Assembly (NCBI GenBank): GCA_965237465.1
Contig: OZ250138.1
Span: 1,814,643-1,878,642, forward strand
From: Dehalococcoidia bacterium
GTDB lineage: Bacteria > Chloroflexota > Dehalococcoidia > UBA6926
DNA length: 64,000 nt
Direction: 5' to 3'
Shown here: in pieces, positions 9,245-43,360 of the stretch
Layout of the letters: every line of letters begins with the position of its first letter
Numbering within the stretch: position 1 is the first letter of the stretch
Notes under the pieces: model-generated
Told to the model about the DNA's origin: nothing
The model's input: only the letters and a program-made list of their open reading frames with translations
Database searches by the model: none
Position numbers and translations under genes: made by a program

Positions 9245-9338
9245 TAACTATACTGTGCGCCCCTGTCCCTCGCTATACCGCTGCTATACTGGATGCTGAC
9301 CAGCCGAGGCCCAGCACGGAGGCAAGGACACCAGCACA

Positions 9339-11096
9339 ATGCCGCCCTTCCGCGTTGCCCTGGCGCAGATTAACCCCACTGTCGGCGATATTCCCGGCAA
9401 CACGCGCCGCATCATTGAGGACATTCAGCGCGCGAAGGAATACCAGGTGGATCTTGTAGCCTTCCCGGAGCTGTGCATAACCGGCTACCCGCCGGAAGAC
9501 CTCCTCTACAAGGATTCATTCCTGGATGCGGTTGGCGACGCTCTGCATGAGGTGTTCGAGGCCTCGCGCGGCATTGCGGTCGTCGTGGGGTTCCCGGAAC
9601 GCGTCGCCCTGCCGGATTGCCCGGAGCAGATCTACAACTCCGCCGCGGTCATTCACGACGGAGAGCTTGCCGACGTGTACCGCAAGATCTTTCTTCCCAA
9701 CTACAGCGTCTTTGATGAGGAACGCTACTTTGAGTCCGGCGATCGATGCCCCGTCTACCGCATCGGCGATGCGCTTATTGGAGTGAATATCTGCGAGGAC
9801 ATCTGGATCGATTCAGGGCCAACGACTGTTCAGCGCACTGCCGGCGCGCAGATCGTCATCAACATCAACGGCTCGCCGTACTACCAGGGGAAGCGCGCGG
9901 AACGGGGCGATATGCTGCGTGAGCGGGCGGCGCAGAACGGCATCTTTCTCTGCTACGTCAACATGACAGGCGGCCAGGATGAGCTTGTCTTTGACGGAGC
10001 GAGCATGATCCTTGATCCGCAGGGGGCCCTAATTGGCGCGGGCCGCCAATTTCACGAGGATCTGGTGGTCGCGGATCTCAACCTGAGCCAGGCGGACGCC
10101 ACGCCGCAGATTGCGGCCATAGATGACACAGACCCGGCCATCAGGCGATGGGCGCAGGCCGATGTCCGGGACATCTCACCGGCGCCGTCTGCGATTGGAG
10201 AGCGTCCTGCGCTCCCGGCGAGAGACATGCCCGACCCCCTCCACCCGGTTGAGGAGGCCTATCGCGCTCTCATCCTTGGCACGCGCGACTACGTGCACAA
10301 GAGCGGATTCTCCCAGGTGGTTATCGGCCTCTCCGGCGGCATTGATTCCGCGCTGACGGCGGCTGTCGCGGCGGATGCCCTCGGCCCCGAAAATGTGCTT
10401 TGCCTGGCGATGCCGTCGCGATTCACGGCGGACCGCAGCGTGACCGACGCGCGGCTGCTCGCCGAGAATCTTGGGATCGGCTTTGACGTGATCGCAATTG
10501 AGGACGTTGTCGCGGCCTATCGCGATGGACTGAATCCGCTCTTCGCGGGCACGCAGGAGGGCGTGGCGGAGGAAAATATCCAGGCGCGCGTGCGCGGCAA
10601 CCTGTTGATGGCCATCTCAAACAAGTTTGGCAAGATTGTGCTTGCCACCGGCAATAAGAGCGAGTACGCCACCGGATACGCAACGCTCTACGGCGATATG
10701 GCGGGCGGCTTCGCCGTCATCAAGGATGTGCCCAAGACACTCGTGTATCAGCTATGCAATTGGCGAAACGAGGACGCAGGTCGCGACATCATTCCACAGG
10801 CGATTATTGACCGGCCGCCGACGGCGGAGTTGCGTCCGGATCAACTCGATATGGACTCTCTCCCACCCTACGACATCCTTGACCCCGTGCTTGAGGCCTA
10901 TGTAGAGCGAGACTGCTCCCCCGCGGACATGGTGAACAAACTTGGCTTTGCCAAAGACGTTGTGAATCGCGTCGTCATGCTTGTTGACCGAAGCGAATAC
11001 AAACGCCGCCAGGCGGCACCCGGCATAAAGATCACCGAGCGCGCCTTCGGCAAAGACCGCCGCCTCCCCATAGTCAACCGCTACAAGCCGGTGTAG
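9339..11096 (+). CDS. nadE: Glutamine-dependent NAD+ synthetase (CN-hydrolase domain plus NAD synthetase domain)
   Basis: 585-aa ORF with an N-terminal nitrilase-like domain (FPEL..TGYP, NICEDIW) and a C-terminal PP-loop (GLSGGIDS). Confidence 0.95.
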   Translation: MPPFRVALAQINPTVGDIPGNTRRIIEDIQRAKEYQVDLVAFPELCITGYPPEDLLYKDSFLDAVGDALHEVFEASRGIAVVVGFPERVALPDCPEQIYNSAAVIHDGELADVYRKIFLPNYSVFDEERYFESGDRCPVYRIGDALIGVNICEDIWIDSGPTTVQRTAGAQIVININGSPYYQGKRAERGDMLRERAAQNGIFLCYVNMTGGQDELVFDGASMILDPQGALIGAGRQFHEDLVVADLNLSQADATPQIAAIDDTDPAIRRWAQADVRDISPAPSAIGERPALPARDMPDPLHPVEEAYRALILGTRDYVHKSGFSQVVIGLSGGIDSALTAAVAADALGPENVLCLAMPSRFTADRSVTDARLLAENLGIGFDVIAIEDVVAAYRDGLNPLFAGTQEGVAEENIQARVRGNLLMAISNKFGKIVLATGNKSEYATGYATLYGDMAGGFAVIKDVPKTLVYQLCNWRNEDAGRDIIPQAIIDRPPTAELRPDQLDMDSLPPYDILDPVLEAYVERDCSPADMVNKLGFAKDVVNRVVMLVDRSEYKRRQAAPGIKITERAFGKDRRLPIVNRYKPV

Positions 11097-36599: not shown

Positions 36600-38105
36600 A
36601 TGCCGCCGGATGAGGCGCACGCCCCTCGGGAGCTGGAAGGGGATCCGCTTTCTGCGCCCCGCATCGCCAAGCTTGATCGCCTTCGAGAGCAGGGCCTTGA
36701 CCCCTATCCCCGCCGCGTCACGAGGACCCACTCTGTTGCAGAGGCCCGGGCGCTCATGGAGTCCGAGGCCGGGGAAAGCCAGCGCGTCGCGATTGCGGGG
36801 AGGCTCATCACCATCAGGGGCATGGGCCGACTTACATTCGCGACCATTCGCGACGGGAGCGGACAGATTCAACTGAGCTTCGCACGGGACACGCTTGAGG
36901 AAGCGGAGTACCAGAACACCAAGAACCTCGACCTGGGCGACTTTATTGGCGCGGAGGGCACGCTGTTTCGCACACGGACGGGGGAGATAACGGTGTCGGT
37001 GGCTTCTTACGCCATGCTCGCAAAGGCGCTGCGTCCCCCGCCGGAGAAATGGCACGGACTCCGCGACGTTGAGCAACGATACAGGCAGCGCTATCTGGAT
37101 CTCATGGCCAACTCCGAGGTGCGCGACATCTTCCGCGCCCGGAGCATCATCGTCTCCGCCATTCGCCGGTTCATGGAGGATCGCGGTTTTCTGGAGGCGG
37201 AGACGCCCATCCTTGTGCCAATCCCCGCCGGCGCCATGGCCCTGCCGTTCATCACGAGGCACAACGCTCTTGACCGGCAGTTGTATCTGCGCATTGCGAC
37301 GGAGCTCAACCTCAAGAGGCTGCTTGTCGGTGGGTTTGACAAGGTCTTTGAGATTGGCCGTATCTTTCGGAATGAGGGCATTGACGCCTCGCACAACCCG
37401 GAATTCACGACTATGGAGTCCTACGAAGCCTATGCGTCATACGTGGATGTCATGGAGATGGTTGAGACGCTTGTCCACTCGCTCTGCGTCTTAACACGCG
37501 GCCAGCCCACTGTGGAGTACGAGGGCCACACAATCGATTTCACGCCGCCGTGGCAACGCGTCTCCCTCATTGACGCCATCAAGGAATGGAGCGGGATTGA
37601 TCTGCTGGATGATGAAATGCGGACGGCCGCAGGTCTTCGCCGGGCGATGCGTGATTTTGGTCTGACGCCTGCCGAGGACACCTCTTGGCCACAGCTCGCC
37701 GACAAGCTCATTGGCGACCTGGTTGAGCCTCGCCTTATAGAGCCGACTTTCCTCACCGATTACCCAATTGAGATGACGCCCCTCGCAAAGGCCACCGCCG
37801 ATGATCCGAGACTCGTTGAGCGATTCGAGGGATTTGTGGGCGGCATGGAGATTGCCAACTCCTTCACGGAGCTGAATGACCCGCTGGAACAGGCGGCAAG
37901 GCTGCGAGCCCAGGAGGAGAATCGCCGGGAATTCGGCGAAGAGGACTTTGACCGGCTCGATGAGGATTTTGTCACTGCAGTTGAGCACGGAATGCCGCCC
38001 GCCGGCGGCCTCGGCCTCGGTATAGATAGGGTTGTCATGCTCCTTACTGGCCAGTCGGCCATTCGGGAGGTGGTCCTGTTTCCCCAACTCCGCAACATTG
38101 AATAG
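36600..38105 (+). CDS. lysS: Lysine--tRNA ligase (class II)
   Basis: OB anticodon domain plus class II motifs (FRNEG.D..HNPEFT, GGLGLGIDRVVML). Confidence 0.95.
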   Translation: MPPDEAHAPRELEGDPLSAPRIAKLDRLREQGLDPYPRRVTRTHSVAEARALMESEAGESQRVAIAGRLITIRGMGRLTFATIRDGSGQIQLSFARDTLEEAEYQNTKNLDLGDFIGAEGTLFRTRTGEITVSVASYAMLAKALRPPPEKWHGLRDVEQRYRQRYLDLMANSEVRDIFRARSIIVSAIRRFMEDRGFLEAETPILVPIPAGAMALPFITRHNALDRQLYLRIATELNLKRLLVGGFDKVFEIGRIFRNEGIDASHNPEFTTMESYEAYASYVDVMEMVETLVHSLCVLTRGQPTVEYEGHTIDFTPPWQRVSLIDAIKEWSGIDLLDDEMRTAAGLRRAMRDFGLTPAEDTSWPQLADKLIGDLVEPRLIEPTFLTDYPIEMTPLAKATADDPRLVERFEGFVGGMEIANSFTELNDPLEQAARLRAQEENRREFGEEDFDRLDEDFVTAVEHGMPPAGGLGLGIDRVVMLLTGQSAIREVVLFPQLRNIE

Positions 38106-38216: not shown

Positions 38217-39920
38217 GTGATTCAGGCGGCGCGGATTCTTGCGCTCGTGCTGCTCGCATCCTTTGCGGCTATTGCGTGCAACGGAGACGGTTCGCCTGAC
38301 ACGTCCGCGCCGCCAGGTGATGGGGCCGCCATCCCGGATGCCAATAATCCGCGATATGGCGGCGTTCTTGTGCTGGCGAATCGCGGGGACCCGCCTGCAG
38401 CATTCGACCCCATGCGAACGTCAAGCATTGCCCTCCACCATACGGGAGGCGCGATTTTCGGCCCCGGAAACCTTGTGCGGCGATGCCGCCAGAACATGTA
38501 CCTGGTCTGTCCTGACCTCGCTTCCGACTGGACCGCAAACCCCGGCTATACGGAGTGGACCTTCACTATCCGACCGAATGTTGTGTGGCATGACGGCGAA
38601 CCCTTTACCGCGGAGGACGTGGAGTTCTGGTACACGCTGGCGGGCAAGGGTTGGGAGGCGGAGGACGGCGGCGTCCGCGCTCCCGCGTACTTTCGCGGCG
38701 ATCTGGGCGATGTCCAGGCTATAGAAATCCTGCCGTTTGACCGCATTCGCATCACCCTGGCCGAGCCAAATCCGCACTACCTGTCCGTACTCGCCAATCC
38801 GCGCTTGCGAATCGCCCACCCCAAGCACGTGATGGAACCGCTCATCCTCGCCGGCGATCTCAGCGTGGCCCCTCTGGATATCGGGGTAGTGGGCACGGGC
38901 CCATTCAGGCTTGAGCGATACGATCTCGGGAGCCTGATCCGCGTTGTACGAAATGAGGACTATTGGGACTCCGGGCTGGCGGGCGAATTGCCCTACCTCG
39001 ACGGGATCGACTTCGTCATCATTCCGAGTCCTGCGGCCATGGACGCGGCGTTTAGGACGGGGCGCATCGACGGAGGCGCGCGAGGAGAGGGCCACTATCT
39101 GACCACGGAACGACAGGCGGCCATCGACAGTCAGCTCGGCACGGAAGATGTCTACTACGCCGAGATGCAGGGCGGCATGTTTCGGCTGGGTTTCAACGTG
39201 CTCAAGGACGGCCCATGGCAGGATGCCCGCGTGCGCCAGGCGATCTCACTTTGGATAGACCGCGAGGCGGCGATTCCAACGGTGCTGGGCGGATTCGGTT
39301 ACATATCCCCCACGTTCAGCCCCGCCAACCCCTTTACGTCCGCGGACTTCACGACGTGGCAGCGATTCAATCGGGGCGCGTTGGGGGAGAGACGCGAGGA
39401 GGCGCGCGGCCTGATGGCGGAAGCGGGCTTTGAGGACGGATTCACGATGGGCTACCTCTGCCGCGCTCGCCTCACGCCGCGGTGCGAGTTTCTCCATAAT
39501 CAGTTGGCCGGGCTCGGAATCGACCTGACGATTCGGCTGGTGGACGAGGCGGAGTGGAATCGCGGACGCGTGAGCCTCGACTACGATTCCCAACCCGGCT
39601 CCAACTTTACCTCTCCGATACCTGAGGGGACGGAGACGGCATATGGCGTTTACAGCAGCTTTCCTGACGCCTACGCCAAGCACGAGGATGCTCGAGTGAC
39701 GGAGCTCTACGGGAGGCTGCGCGCGACGCGCACGCAACGACAACGCGTTGACGCCTGGCGCGAGCTTGAGAGCTACATCGTACGGGAGCAGACCTACGTC
39801 GTGCCCATTGCGGGCACCGTGCAAGTGGTGCCGTACCGGACGTATGTCAAGGGGCTGGTTATTCCCCCGGAAGACGGCCACACTCACACGGATTTCGCCA
39901 CAGTCTGGCTGGACAAGTAG
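38217..39920 (+). CDS. ABC transporter substrate-binding lipoprotein (family 5, peptide/nickel type)
   Basis: 567-aa ORF (GTG start) with a lipobox (FAAIAC). Its size and sequence pattern fit the SBP_bac_5 family. Confidence 0.85.
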   Translation: MIQAARILALVLLASFAAIACNGDGSPDTSAPPGDGAAIPDANNPRYGGVLVLANRGDPPAAFDPMRTSSIALHHTGGAIFGPGNLVRRCRQNMYLVCPDLASDWTANPGYTEWTFTIRPNVVWHDGEPFTAEDVEFWYTLAGKGWEAEDGGVRAPAYFRGDLGDVQAIEILPFDRIRITLAEPNPHYLSVLANPRLRIAHPKHVMEPLILAGDLSVAPLDIGVVGTGPFRLERYDLGSLIRVVRNEDYWDSGLAGELPYLDGIDFVIIPSPAAMDAAFRTGRIDGGARGEGHYLTTERQAAIDSQLGTEDVYYAEMQGGMFRLGFNVLKDGPWQDARVRQAISLWIDREAAIPTVLGGFGYISPTFSPANPFTSADFTTWQRFNRGALGERREEARGLMAEAGFEDGFTMGYLCRARLTPRCEFLHNQLAGLGIDLTIRLVDEAEWNRGRVSLDYDSQPGSNFTSPIPEGTETAYGVYSSFPDAYAKHEDARVTELYGRLRATRTQRQRVDAWRELESYIVREQTYVVPIAGTVQVVPYRTYVKGLVIPPEDGHTHTDFATVWLDK

Positions 39921-39954
39921 GCGGGGCGCTGTTGCTCATGCTGCGTGGCGGGAG

Positions 39955-40200
39955 AGTATAGAAACCCACGGCAAACGAAACCGGAGTATAGGTCTGGCGC
40001 ATAAGTTATACTTTGAGTGGCAATAGTATAGAAATATGCACCGAACGATACGGGAGTACAGGCCCGGCCGGCGAGCTATACTCTGAGCGTGGAAAGTATA
40101 GAAAATCGCGGCGAACGAAACTGGAGTATAAGTTGAGGCCACGAGTTATACTCCGAGCTGAAAAAGTATAGAAACCTCTGATGAACGAAACGGGAGTATG
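39955..40200 (+). repeat. Tandem array of 3.5 structured 70-bp repeats (units start at 39955, 40025, 40095, 40165)
   Basis: Each unit is AGTATAGAAA-N8-GAACGAAAC-N-GGAGTATA-N13-AGTTATACTYYGAG-N7. Conserved blocks alternate with short variable blocks. The region is locally AT-rich in a GC-rich genome. The array ends 8 nt before the fic GTG start. Confidence 0.9.
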
Positions 40201-40208
40201 GATTCACC

Positions 40209-41366
40209 GTGCAACGCCTGAGGGCCAGTCCGGCTGGACGTCTCGTCCCGATCAATGAGGGCGGATCTGCATTCGTCCCCAACCCGCTGCCGTCAGAAGC
40301 GCCCATGGAAGCCGAGTTGGTTGTTGCGCTTGACGCCGCTGCCCGCGCCGTCGGCACGTTAGCCGGCGTCGGCGAGACCATGCCCAACCCGCATCTACTC
40401 TTACGGCCGTTCATACGCCGCGAGGCCGTCCTGTCGTCCCAAATTGAGGGAACAGTCGCCACGCTCTCGGACGTAGTCGCGTCGGAAATGCAGACACGGC
40501 CCCGCCAGGATGGCGACGTGGCCGAGGTGCGCAACTACGTCATTGCCCTGGAATACGCTATTGAGCGGCTCGAGGCCCTGCCGATCTCGTTCAGGCTGGT
40601 CAACGAGATTCACGAGCGACTGATGCGCAGCGTCCGCGGTGAGGAGAAGTTGCCGGGTCAATTCCGAGACACCCAGGCATATATCGGCGCGCCGGGCTCC
40701 GGGATTGGGGACGCACGGTTTGTTCCTCCGCCGCCCGCGCAGCTGCGCGACCTCTTCTTCGACCTCGAGGCCTTCATCAATGAGCATCCAGGCCGGATGC
40801 CTCCTCTCATCCGCTGCGCCCTCATGCACTACCAGTTTGAGGCGATCCACCCCTATCGCGACGGCAACGGGAGGACCGGGAGACTGCTTATAACGCTGTT
40901 CTTGCTGCAGAGCGGCGTGCTGCCGCAGCCGTTGCTCTACCTCAGCGCCTACTTCGAGCGTGATCGGCAACGCTACTACGATGAGTTGTTCAACGTCAGC
41001 ATGACCGGCGACTGGGCCAGGTGGATTCGCTATTTCCTTACCGGAGTGGAGGCGGAGGCGCGCGACACCGTGGAGCGGATTCGGAGCATGCGCGCACTGC
41101 AGGACGGATGGCGCGACATGCTGCGTCGTCGAGGCGAGTCCGCCAACGGCCTGCGTCTGCTTGACCATCTGTGCGCGTCGCTCGTCACGAGCGCGCCGTA
41201 CGCCTCCACATATTTGGGCATTACGGACGCGGGGGCGCGCAGAGTCCTTGACCGCCTGGTTGATGCGGGGATTGTGCGCCGACTAACCACCTATCGGCCC
41301 AATCTGTACATGGCGCAGCGGCTTATCGACGAGATCGAACGCCCAATCGCACTAAAGCAGGAATAG
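40209..41366 (+). CDS. Fic-family protein (Fic_N plus Fic core plus C-terminal wHTH-like region)
   Basis: Fic active-site motif HPYRDGNGRTGR and the N-terminal auto-inhibitory-type motif SSQIEGT. GTG start at 40209. Confidence 0.9.
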   Translation: MQRLRASPAGRLVPINEGGSAFVPNPLPSEAPMEAELVVALDAAARAVGTLAGVGETMPNPHLLLRPFIRREAVLSSQIEGTVATLSDVVASEMQTRPRQDGDVAEVRNYVIALEYAIERLEALPISFRLVNEIHERLMRSVRGEEKLPGQFRDTQAYIGAPGSGIGDARFVPPPPAQLRDLFFDLEAFINEHPGRMPPLIRCALMHYQFEAIHPYRDGNGRTGRLLITLFLLQSGVLPQPLLYLSAYFERDRQRYYDELFNVSMTGDWARWIRYFLTGVEAEARDTVERIRSMRALQDGWRDMLRRRGESANGLRLLDHLCASLVTSAPYASTYLGITDAGARRVLDRLVDAGIVRRLTTYRPNLYMAQRLIDEIERPIALKQE

Positions 41367-41446
41367 TCGAGCCGCGAGTGCCGCGAGCAAAGGCGCAACC
41401 GGTCGCGGATAGTCGCCCTGGTTGGGTGATGCGGTAGCCTCTTTCT

Positions 41447-42409
41447 ATGGTCCGATACATCGGTCTGCGGCTGGCGCTGTTTGTTCCGACGCTCCTGCTT
41501 GCCTCGGTTGTGATATTTGCCGTTCTCCGCATCCTGCCCGGAGATGTCGTCGATGTCGTCCTGGGCGGGTCCGGTGAGGTTGCGCATGACCCGGAGCAGG
41601 TGCGGCGCGCTCGGGAGGAGCTGGGGCTGGATGACTCGCTTATCGCCCAGTACGGCGGGTGGCTTGCGAGCATGGCGACGGGCGACTTTGGCGGTAGGTC
41701 ATTCGCTAGTCGTGAGCCGATCTCGTCCCTCGTGTGGCGTCAGCTGCCGGTTACCATGCAGCTGGCGGGGTACACGTTGACGCTTGCCGTCGCGGCTGCA
41801 ATTCCGCTTGGCGTTGCGGGGGCGGTTCGCAACGGACGCTGGCCGGATTACTTTGTGCGCCTGTTTGCGATTGGCGGGCAGGCCGTGCCCGGTTTCTTTC
41901 TTGCACTGGTATTGCTGATGGCGCTGGTTCTGAGTGCGGGATGGTCGCCGCCCGTTATCTACGCGCACGCATGGCAGGATCCGCTTCGGCACGTTCAGAT
42001 GATGGCTTTGCCGACGCTGATTCTCGCGTGGGGCTACGCGGCGTACCTGACTAGGATCACCCGCGCCGGCGCTCTTGATGTTTTGGGCCAGGATTACATC
42101 CGGACAGCGCGCGGCAAGGGTCTCTCGGAACGAATCGTCCTCTTTCGTCACGCCCTACGCAACGCGCTCATTCCCGTGCTGAGCGTCGCAGGCATCCAGG
42201 CGGGCGCCTTGCTCAGCGGCGTCGTTGTCCTGGAGTCGATATTCGGGCTGCCCGGCATCGGTCGCGGAATTGTCGATGCCGTCTCTACCCGTGACTACCC
42301 CGTCGTGCAAACATACGCCACGCTGTTCGTCTTCATCATGCTGGTCGTCAATTTGTTAGTTGATATCCTCTATGCCGTCCTTGATCCACGCATCACATAC
42401 TCCGACTGA
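41447..42409 (+). CDS. ABC transporter permease (DppB/OppB-like)
   Basis: 320-aa ORF with 6 TM segments and an N-terminal MVRYIGLRLALFVPTLLLASVVIFAVLRILPGD pattern typical of peptide permeases. Confidence 0.9.
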   Translation: MVRYIGLRLALFVPTLLLASVVIFAVLRILPGDVVDVVLGGSGEVAHDPEQVRRAREELGLDDSLIAQYGGWLASMATGDFGGRSFASREPISSLVWRQLPVTMQLAGYTLTLAVAAAIPLGVAGAVRNGRWPDYFVRLFAIGGQAVPGFFLALVLLMALVLSAGWSPPVIYAHAWQDPLRHVQMMALPTLILAWGYAAYLTRITRAGALDVLGQDYIRTARGKGLSERIVLFRHALRNALIPVLSVAGIQAGALLSGVVVLESIFGLPGIGRGIVDAVSTRDYPVVQTYATLFVFIMLVVNLLVDILYAVLDPRITYSD

Positions 42410-42490: not shown

Positions 42491-43360
42491 ATGATGGCCT
42501 CGACGGGCCGACCACCGGCTGTTTCGGCGAGGCGTAGATTTGGGCGCATGATCCGACGGCATCCAGTCGGCGCGATCGCGCTTGCTGTCTTGCTCCTTAT
42601 GGCGGCGGCTGCGCTCTTTGCGGACCTGGCGACGGCGTATGGCCCGCTTGACACTGATGAGCCGAGCGCGTTGCTTCCCCCTTCCGCGGATCACTACTTC
42701 GGGACGGACCGATTCGGGCGGGACGTGTTTAGTCGCGTCCTGCACGGCGCGCGGCTGTCCCTGACCATTGGCCTGGTGTCCGTGGCGGTTGGAACTGTGA
42801 TCGGAACGGTGATCGGCATCGTCTCGGCATACTTTTCAGGGCTGACTGATCTGCTGGCGCAGCGCGTTGTGGACACGATGATGGCCTTCCCGAGTCTGCT
42901 GATGGCGCTCCTGCTGGTCGCTGTTCTGGGTCCATCCCCGAACAGCGTCATCATCGGGATTGTTGTGGCGTTCGTTCCGCAGGTGGCGCGAATAGCGCGG
43001 GCGCAGGCTCTGGTGGTCAGGGCGGAGCCCTACGTCATGGCGGTGGAGGCGATGGGCGCCGGGCCCGTCCGCGTCATGGTTCGCCACGTGCTGCCGAATG
43101 CGATTGCGCCCGTCATCATCCACGCCACCGGATTCATGGAGGGGGCCGTGCTGACGGAGGCCACGCTGAGTTTTCTTGGTCTGGGGACGCCGCCCCCTGA
43201 TCCATCTTGGGGACGAATGCTGAAGGAGGGCTCAGAGGGTTTTCTGGAGGCAGCGCCGTGGTTGACGCTCTTTCCCGGCCTGGCGCTCACTTTGTTGGTG
43301 TTCTGCGTTGCATTGATTGGGGATGCCCTGCGTGATGTGCTTGACCCGCGTCATCGGTGA
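42491..43360 (+). CDS. ABC transporter permease (DppC/OppC-like)
   Basis: 289-aa ORF with HYFGTDRFGRDVFSRVLHGAR typical of DppC/OppC permeases. Confidence 0.9.
   Translation: MMASTGRPPAVSARRRFGRMIRRHPVGAIALAVLLLMAAAALFADLATAYGPLDTDEPSALLPPSADHYFGTDRFGRDVFSRVLHGARLSLTIGLVSVAVGTVIGTVIGIVSAYFSGLTDLLAQRVVDTMMAFPSLLMALLLVAVLGPSPNSVIIGIVVAFVPQVARIARAQALVVRAEPYVMAVEAMGAGPVRVMVRHVLPNAIAPVIIHATGFMEGAVLTEATLSFLGLGTPPPDPSWGRMLKEGSEGFLEAAPWLTLFPGLALTLLVFCVALIGDALRDVLDPRHR

Follow-up and report, generated by a model that had tools for sequence, protein, structure and literature searches.

A phased array of putative autoregulatory operator boxes upstream of a SoFic-type fic gene in a Dehalococcoidia bacterium

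What could be the role of four exactly phased 70-bp units, each a scaffold of conserved blocks and variable spacers, that end at the start of a gene for a Fic protein? The question is raised by a stretch of 64,000 nucleotides from a Dehalococcoidia bacterium (Chloroflexota; contig OZ250138.1, positions 1,814,643 to 1,878,642), hereafter the window, in which such an array directly precedes fic. Having compared the array with the upstream regions of homologous genes and with the known systems, we consider it probable that it is an expanded autoregulatory operator and promoter region bound by the SoFic-type Fic protein that the adjacent gene encodes. The kind of element is already known, namely, the autoregulatory operators of Fic proteins that carry a winged helix-turn-helix (wHTH) domain. 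Binding of the boxes by the window Fic, repression of the gene and the position of the promoter are what we infer from the sequence.

Anatomy of the array

The array (39955–40200, a putative promoter/operator element to which no strand is assigned) was delimited by repeat finding and block comparison and comprises 3.5 tandem units with 10 boxes of the RAGTATAR type. Its four units start, in exact phase, at 39955, 40025, 40095 and 40165, the fourth being truncated. Tandem Repeats Finder reports a period of 70 with 2.9 copies at 39974–40174, the sole long-period repeat of the window, and the pattern AGTATAGAAA-N8-GAACGAAAC, searched with at most one mismatch, occurs at each of the four unit starts and in none of 100 shuffled sequences. 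Both results bear out the phase and the starts that had been given in the original prediction, an earlier reading of this DNA from its letters. The array is also AT-rich, as that reading had said, with a GC content of 47% compared to 62% for the window.

Within each unit, four conserved blocks are interleaved with four short variable segments of 8, 1, 13 and 7 nt, which together with the blocks sum to exactly 70 nt; the blocks lie precisely where the original prediction had placed them, and the spacers are of fixed length, as it had claimed. When the units are compared with each other, the conserved blocks are 88–93% identical as opposed to 34–45% for the spacers. This combination of high block identity and low spacer identity implies that the units are old copies and that selection has acted on the blocks in every copy.

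In unit 1, box A, AGTATAGAAA, occupies 39955–39964 on the plus strand, with copies at 40025–40034, 40095–40104 and 40165–40174. It is followed on the same strand by the middle block RAACGAWAC at 39973–39981 (copies at 40043–40051, 40113–40121 and 40183–40191) and by box B, GGAGTATA (consensus GGAGTAYR), at 39983–39990, which recurs at 40053–40060 as GGAGTACA and at 40123–40130. Box C, AGTTATACTTTGAG, which belongs to the block AGYTATACTYYGAG, is assigned to the minus strand at 40004–40017, where it reads AGTATAAC, and has copies at 40074–40087 and 40144–40157. The hexamer AGTATA, noticed earlier twice in direct and once in inverted orientation per unit, thus corresponds to boxes A(+), B(+) and C(−), which share the consensus RAGTATAR and are arranged as B(+), 22 nt, C(−), 18 nt, A(+), 30 nt and the next B(+), that is, in steps of approximately two, two and three helical turns. 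The inverted B and C boxes, of 6–9 bp, are separated by a gap of 13–16 bp and are 22 bp apart from start to start. Of the nine RAGTATAR octamers that the 64-kb window contains, eight are found inside the array, and it is for this window that the tie of the motif to fic is shown. The 10 boxes are located between −254 and −9 relative to the fic GTG.

Unit 4 stops after the terminal box B', GGAGTATG (40193–40200, plus strand), which overlaps a Shine-Dalgarno-like GGAG positioned 12 nt upstream of the GTG start codon at 40209; the truncation and the location of GGAG had both been described correctly. Sequences that resemble a −10 element are present in two of the boxes: TATACT within box C, the last copy of which (40147–40152) ends 56 nt before the start codon, and TAGAAA or TAGAAT within box A. 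The RAACGAWAC block could represent a lengthened box B or a part of the 5' untranslated region (UTR). Relatives retain it only loosely, in the form of GAAAC or CAAC before N-GGAG, and in distant arrays it has no counterpart.

The Fic protein and its closest known counterparts

The gene that follows the array (fic; 40209–41366, plus strand, GTG start) encodes a protein of 385 aa that is predicted, from Pfam, PADLOC and structure matches, to be a SoFic-type class II Fic AMPylase. Both expected Pfam domains are recognized (Fic_N, E 2e-25; Fic, E 2e-19), the Fic motif HxFx(D/E)GNGRxxR is present as HPYRDGNGRTGR at residues 214–225, and the class II inhibitory motif SSQIEG (residues 76–81) is part of the same polypeptide as the Fic core. 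The SoFic model of PADLOC matches residues 20–376 (E 7e-114), the Protein Data Bank (PDB) entry for SoFic, 3EQX, matches residues 24–368 (E 4e-37), and in a Foldseek comparison the model of the window Fic aligns with SoFic at a TM-score of 0.82–0.87 over approximately 365 columns. In the AlphaFold2 model (pLDDT 88), residues 312–368 (41142–41312, plus strand) adopt the helix-strand-helix-helix-wing order of a C-terminal wHTH, in which the secondary structure of the model places the recognition helix, DAGARRVLDRLVD, at residues 340–352 (nt 41226–41264, plus strand). The window protein is therefore a full-length SoFic homologue, including the wHTH, and an ordinary member of the SoFic family; we propose that its wHTH would be the reader of the boxes.

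Precedent for such a role comes from two proteins that bind their own promoters. CccR, a Fic-HTH toxin of Yersinia pseudotuberculosis, gives a footprint on AGATAATCAT-N26-ATGATAATCT, close to the −35 and −10 elements of its own promoter, and as a dimer represses its own gene through these inverted repeats (PMC9755527). CccR (PDB 7XUX) joins a toxic Fic AMPylase to a DNA-binding domain at the C terminus, an architecture that the window Fic shares, although the kinship in sequence is distant (phmmer E 3e-19 against 7XUX; Foldseek E 1.5e-12, TM-score 0.60–0.64). The operators differ as well: that of CccR consists of a single inverted pair of 10-bp repeats 26 bp apart, whereas the window has 10 shorter boxes spaced 22/18/30 in every 70 bp. 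Furthermore, CccR is an effector secreted by a type VI secretion system (T6SS), a feature of that protein.

The second protein, SoFic (SO_4266/MloA) of Shewanella oneidensis, is homologous to the window Fic from the N-terminal region of the dimerization helix through the Fic core to the wHTH, at approximately 28% identity. As a dimer, SoFic binds specifically to the DNA upstream of its own gene, with a preference for the 100 bp adjacent to the start codon, and the dimer is required for AMPylation as well as for DNA binding (bioRxiv 10.64898/2026.07.09.737422). Examining the published upstream DNA of approximately 300 bp (Table S2 of the same preprint), we found five occurrences of ATGTCGAT, at −137(−), −107(+), −68(+), −57(−) and −28(+), three of which fall in the bound 100-bp fragment; their spacing of 30, 39, 11 and 29 is unlike that in the window. 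Further upstream, GTATAGA, a box that resembles those of the window, occurs four times, at −253(+), −235(−), −213(+) and −195(−), with the spacing of 18/22/18 that is typical of the family.

A third protein, CbFic2 of Coxiella burnetii (PDB 8CIL), is a class II Fic with a wHTH, like the window Fic. Its binding to DNA leads to dimerization and to a switch from AMPylase to deAMPylase (PMC10628234), which indicates that DNA binding can govern activity besides transcription. CbFic2 differs from the window Fic in that its reported binding is largely nonspecific with respect to sequence and its target is a host histone; descriptions of CbFic2 include no operator array. Among type II toxin-antitoxin systems, Phd/Doc, in which Doc has a Fic-like fold, keeps the toxin low through repeated palindromic sites over its own promoter; the window Fic differs from this system in fusing the DNA-binding domain, the inhibitory helix and the toxin in one polypeptide.

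Boxes upstream of fic genes in other lineages

Close relatives of the window protein (69–91% identity) were found only through look-ups of individual proteins, and the upstream regions of these orthologous fic loci have retained the boxes, in arrays of between 1.5 and 3.5 units. The locus with a Fic 81% identical to that of the window (L001) has 3.5 units in 70-bp phase, and three others (L002, L003 and L004; Fic 91% identical for a partial protein, and 69% identical) have 1.5 units each. All four retain GGAGTATA-N14-TATACT-N12-AGTATAGAA and, after it, AAC-N-GGAGTRTGGAT, which leads to the start codon, and L001, L002 and L004 also retain box A as AGTATAGAA and the terminal box B'. Between the window and L001, the blocks are 76–85% identical and the spacers 38–66%; unit 3 of L001 resembles unit 1 of the same array, like a recent copy. 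The range from 1.5 to 3.5 units among close relatives suggests that the minimal module consists of 1.5 units and that the copy number turns over. Matches to TATACT-N12-AGTATAGAA were also obtained in more than 120 viral contigs, with one match in each and none phased, which is the chance outcome for a 15-base AT-rich pattern, and were rejected.

Two wider scans were made, one of metagenome contigs with the single window protein (the matches listed were all at most 61% identical) and one of genome contigs with a Fic alignment (all at most 55% identical among the matches listed), the latter being used for the geometry of the family as a whole rather than for the close clade. Beyond the closest relatives, fic genes in unrelated neighbourhoods (L005, 68% identity; L007, 60%) are preceded by repeats with a phase of approximately 70 bp that are built from other box sequences, and distant fic genes in other phyla have 40–42-bp or 73-bp repeats made of their own palindromes. 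Across these unrelated contexts, fic is the only gene that consistently adjoins the arrays. The presence of arrays with their own box sequences next to fic in unrelated contexts suggests that the element travels with fic and that its sequence is lineage-specific.

The generality of repeated boxes was assessed at 159 fic loci from many phyla by comparing the 160 nt upstream of the start with a 160-nt control inside the gene, the statistic being the number of non-overlapping occurrences, on both strands and with at most one mismatch, of the commonest 8-mer. The best 8-mer was found at least five times upstream of 46 of the 159 genes, compared to none of the in-gene controls, and at least four times upstream of 96, compared to 18. 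Dereplication by greedy clustering at 70% identity, which replaced a single-linkage procedure at 60% that had chained most of the loci, yielded 98 clusters, for which the corresponding counts were 24 versus 0 and 55 versus 12.

Spacing was analyzed with the window's own cluster left out. Adjacent boxes in opposite orientation show peaks at 19 and 22 nt and those in the same orientation a peak at 31 nt; among all pairs in the same orientation, 41 nt is the dominant distance, with 31 and 72 nt also represented. The arrangement in the window, 22/18/30 for a total of 70, matches the three-box unit of one of these loci (L116), 22/19/31 for a total of 72, and four others have related layouts (L145, L027, L113 and L139). 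From this match in spacing across the family, it appears that the structured 70-bp repeat is the local form of a shared geometry. Reading by eye, we also noted in relatives a good match to a −10 element at a distance from the start similar to that in the window, 56 nt in L099 and about as much in L092 and L088.

The sequence of the boxes varies along with the recognition region of the protein. Loci of the AGTATA class, to which the window boxes correspond, encode ITDA-GARRVLDRL in this region, those of the TTGCTAAT class SQQ-GARN.LERL, those of the GGAAATAA class AYN-TVMRAI, those of the TATCAAAA class TWP-TAKASVERL and those of the CCTTTAAT class SFP-TVQTTIDWL. In L088, which lies in an unrelated context, the helix ITPAGARRILERL is close to that of the window, and the box, GATACT/AGTATC, is likewise similar. 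Such pairing of helix and box fits co-evolution of the protein with its operator.

Several individual loci deserve mention. In the closest relative (91% identity; L002/L003, 5001–6161), fic is called as two open reading frames (ORFs) of 300 and 83 aa, probably as a result of a frameshift or decay; this locus has 1.5 units only, and a methyltransferase cassette is inserted upstream. In L005 (3850–4010), the repeat of 70–71 bp extends over the Shine-Dalgarno sequence and the GTG of fic into its first codons (GTGCAGAG), and at least one upstream copy opens a mini-ORF of approximately nine codons; the boundary of this repeat is unlike that in the window, which suggests independent duplications. 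Some fic homologues are located immediately 3' of tRNA genes (tRNA-Thr CGT and tRNA-Met; L096 2242–2316, L122 1848–1922 and L019 531–607), and in L019 the tRNA 3' end is duplicated as a perfect 28-bp sequence, as at an integration site.

In the window itself, the genes are ordered as lysyl-tRNA synthetase (36600–38105), an ABC solute-binding protein (38217–39920), the array with fic (40209–41366) and two ABC permeases (41447–42409 and 42491–43360). Since they are flanked by the solute-binding and permease genes, the array and fic lie within the operon of an ABC transporter of the peptide type. The interval between fic and the gene that follows is only 80 bp, and there is no separate antitoxin gene. 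In the syntenic relatives (L002, L003, L004 and L006), fic is found at the same site together with differing additional cargo, such as an N6/N4 methyltransferase with a PD-(D/E)XK protein or a chromate transporter, and with EcoRII nearby. The region 39921–41446 of the window thus looks like a small variable or defence islet.

The operator model, its alternatives and its implications

Under the operator model, dimers of the SoFic-type Fic would bind the RAGTATAR boxes via their C-terminal winged helices. The inverted B–C pair, with its 22 bp corresponding to about two helical turns, would be the likely unit site, to which A and the next B would add contacts on roughly the same helical face. Bound dimers would be expected to occlude the −10-like TATACT at 40147–40152, TAGAAA in box A and the DNA as far as the Shine-Dalgarno-like GGAG, such that a potentially toxic AMPylase would repress its own transcription; additional units would supply further sites and, through cooperativity, tighter repression. 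The original prediction had included an operator-like array bound by the wHTH of Fic among its proposals, and this proposal is now supported by the type of protein, the spacing across the family, the tracking of helix and box, and the precedent of CccR and SoFic, the binding in the window being what we infer from them.

Several observations weigh against this model. A consensus scan of 39700–40500 found no sigma-70-type promoter, so that the proposed overlap of boxes and promoter is drawn from position, and the −35 candidates are poor. The CccR operator, with its 10-bp arms and 26-bp spacer, has a layout different from that in the window, and the period of 70 bp amounts to 6.7 helical turns, which is not an integral number. 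Moreover, the conserved GAACGAAAC block has no role in the model, and phylogeny confounds the correlation between helix and box, each box class being a clade as well.

A variant in which the array acts as more than an operator is improbable in our judgement. In this variant, the array would be a specific DNA platform on which several SoFic-type dimers assemble in a row beside their own gene and which holds the enzyme in a non-toxic, DNA-bound dimeric state. If the platform were lost upon phage infection, be it by DNA damage, competition or degradation, derepression of the gene would coincide with the release of active AMPylase. The idea was prompted by the DNA-induced dimerization and switch of CbFic2 and by the requirement of the SoFic dimer for both AMPylation and DNA binding. 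If it were true, the operator copy number would set the threshold of an abortive-infection switch.

The other main proposal of the original prediction, a structured RNA in which the Shine-Dalgarno sequence is sequestered, is not supported. As a cis-acting leader, such an RNA would form plus-strand hairpins between GGAGTATA and TATACTYY, and competition between three AGUAUA and one UAUACU per unit would gate GGAG or the stability of the mRNA. The underlying sequence facts were reproduced: unit 3 has nine perfect pairs (40123–40131 with 40146–40154), unit 1 has two G-T positions and unit 2 has one mismatch. Across eight units from four loci, the B–C stem pairs in 94% of the cells, with G-U pairs on the plus strand; the B3–C3 hairpin is part of the minimum-free-energy fold of the last 1.5 units; and read-through transcription is possible given that there is no terminator between the upstream gene and the array. 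However, the last 1.5 units do not fold significantly (z −1.5), and there is no preference for the coding strand, the fold of the minus strand being no worse than that of the plus strand (z −2.8 versus −2.0). The check for covariation that had been suggested, performed by pair counting on the eight hairpins of the four loci, gave a value of 0.210 compared to a shuffled mean of 0.188, with 212 of the 500 shuffles at least as high; the 6-bp core of the stem is invariant, there is one double change only, and the change of GGAG to GACG in L002 is uncompensated in box C. Box A and the boxes in the same orientation, at 30–31, 41 and 70–72 nt, have no role in the hairpin model. A search against Rfam, also suggested earlier, returned no match in the array even at E values up to 10, and the three chance-level matches of this permissive search of 39000–41500 all fall outside it. 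Given the invariant core, the covariation at the level of shuffles and the absence of strand preference, we regard an RNA leader as unlikely.

Little probability also attaches to the idea that the promoter and 5' UTR of fic were duplicated in tandem as a neutral event, in which case the blocks would be −35, −10 and Shine-Dalgarno elements or leftovers of gene conversion, with no dedicated binder. The −10-like sequences in boxes A and C are in accord with this explanation, as is the variation in copy number among close relatives, including the recent-looking unit 3 of L001, and the repeat of L005 that spans the 5' end of the gene demonstrates that such duplication does occur. Nevertheless, gene conversion would homogenise whole units, which is at odds with the contrast between block and spacer identity in the array. 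Promoter elements, for their part, leave unexplained the presence of the same octamer three times per unit in two orientations, as well as that of different octamers with the same spacing in unrelated lineages.

It is very unlikely that the boxes are bound not by Fic but by some other regulator, of the host or of a mobile element. This explanation draws on the indirect nature of the case for binding by Fic and on a small cluster of TATACT-like sequences upstream of another gene of the window: CTATACT, CTATACC and CTATACT lie within 45 bp at 9249–9290, in the divergent intergenic region upstream of the ORF at 9339–11096, and could be either ordinary −10-like elements or further sites for the same protein. 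Against it stand the consistent adjacency of arrays to fic alone in unrelated contexts, the tracking of box class with the recognition helix of Fic, and the binding of CccR and SoFic to their own promoters.

Scarcely credible, finally, is a CRISPR-like array or a repetitive RNA antitoxin of the ToxI kind, as in type III toxin-antitoxin systems, for although tandem repeats lie directly 5' of a toxin-type gene and the 70-bp period is near the length of a CRISPR repeat plus spacer, type III systems of the ToxIN type need an endoribonuclease toxin whereas Fic is an AMPylase, the scan of 39700–40500 found no terminator between the repeats and fic, each unit has four interleaved blocks rather than one repeat and one spacer, and the sole match to a CRISPR direct-repeat (CRISPR-DR) model of Rfam, at 18.7 bits compared to a threshold of 45, is inside fic on the other strand. 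The ToxI-like reading was thus rejected on anatomy, and the view of the original prediction that the array is not a CRISPR array stands, with no CRISPR repeat model matching within the array.

The original prediction also did not recognize the array as a described element. This holds for the layout but not for the kind of element, which has been described for CccR. In the literature that we found, the three-box layout of 70–72 bp, its tandem expansion to 10 boxes, the spacing rule across the family and the pairing of box classes with variants of the recognition helix are undescribed.

SoFic-type Fic proteins are widespread single-gene anti-phage or toxin modules, and the study of their regulation is just beginning. 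The operator has been mapped to the nucleotide for CccR only, whereas that of SoFic is so far a 100-bp fragment. The comparison presented here predicts the exact half-site boxes for about 100 lineages, together with a shared spacing rule, under which inverted boxes are 19 or 22 nt apart and direct ones 31, 41 and 72 nt. The pairs of box class and helix are testable predictions of operators and may point to a recognition code for the winged helix. Self-repression of a toxin gene is conceptually unsurprising; nevertheless, the array of 3.5 units in this bacterium would offer a natural case in which operator copy number can be set against the expression of a toxic enzyme.

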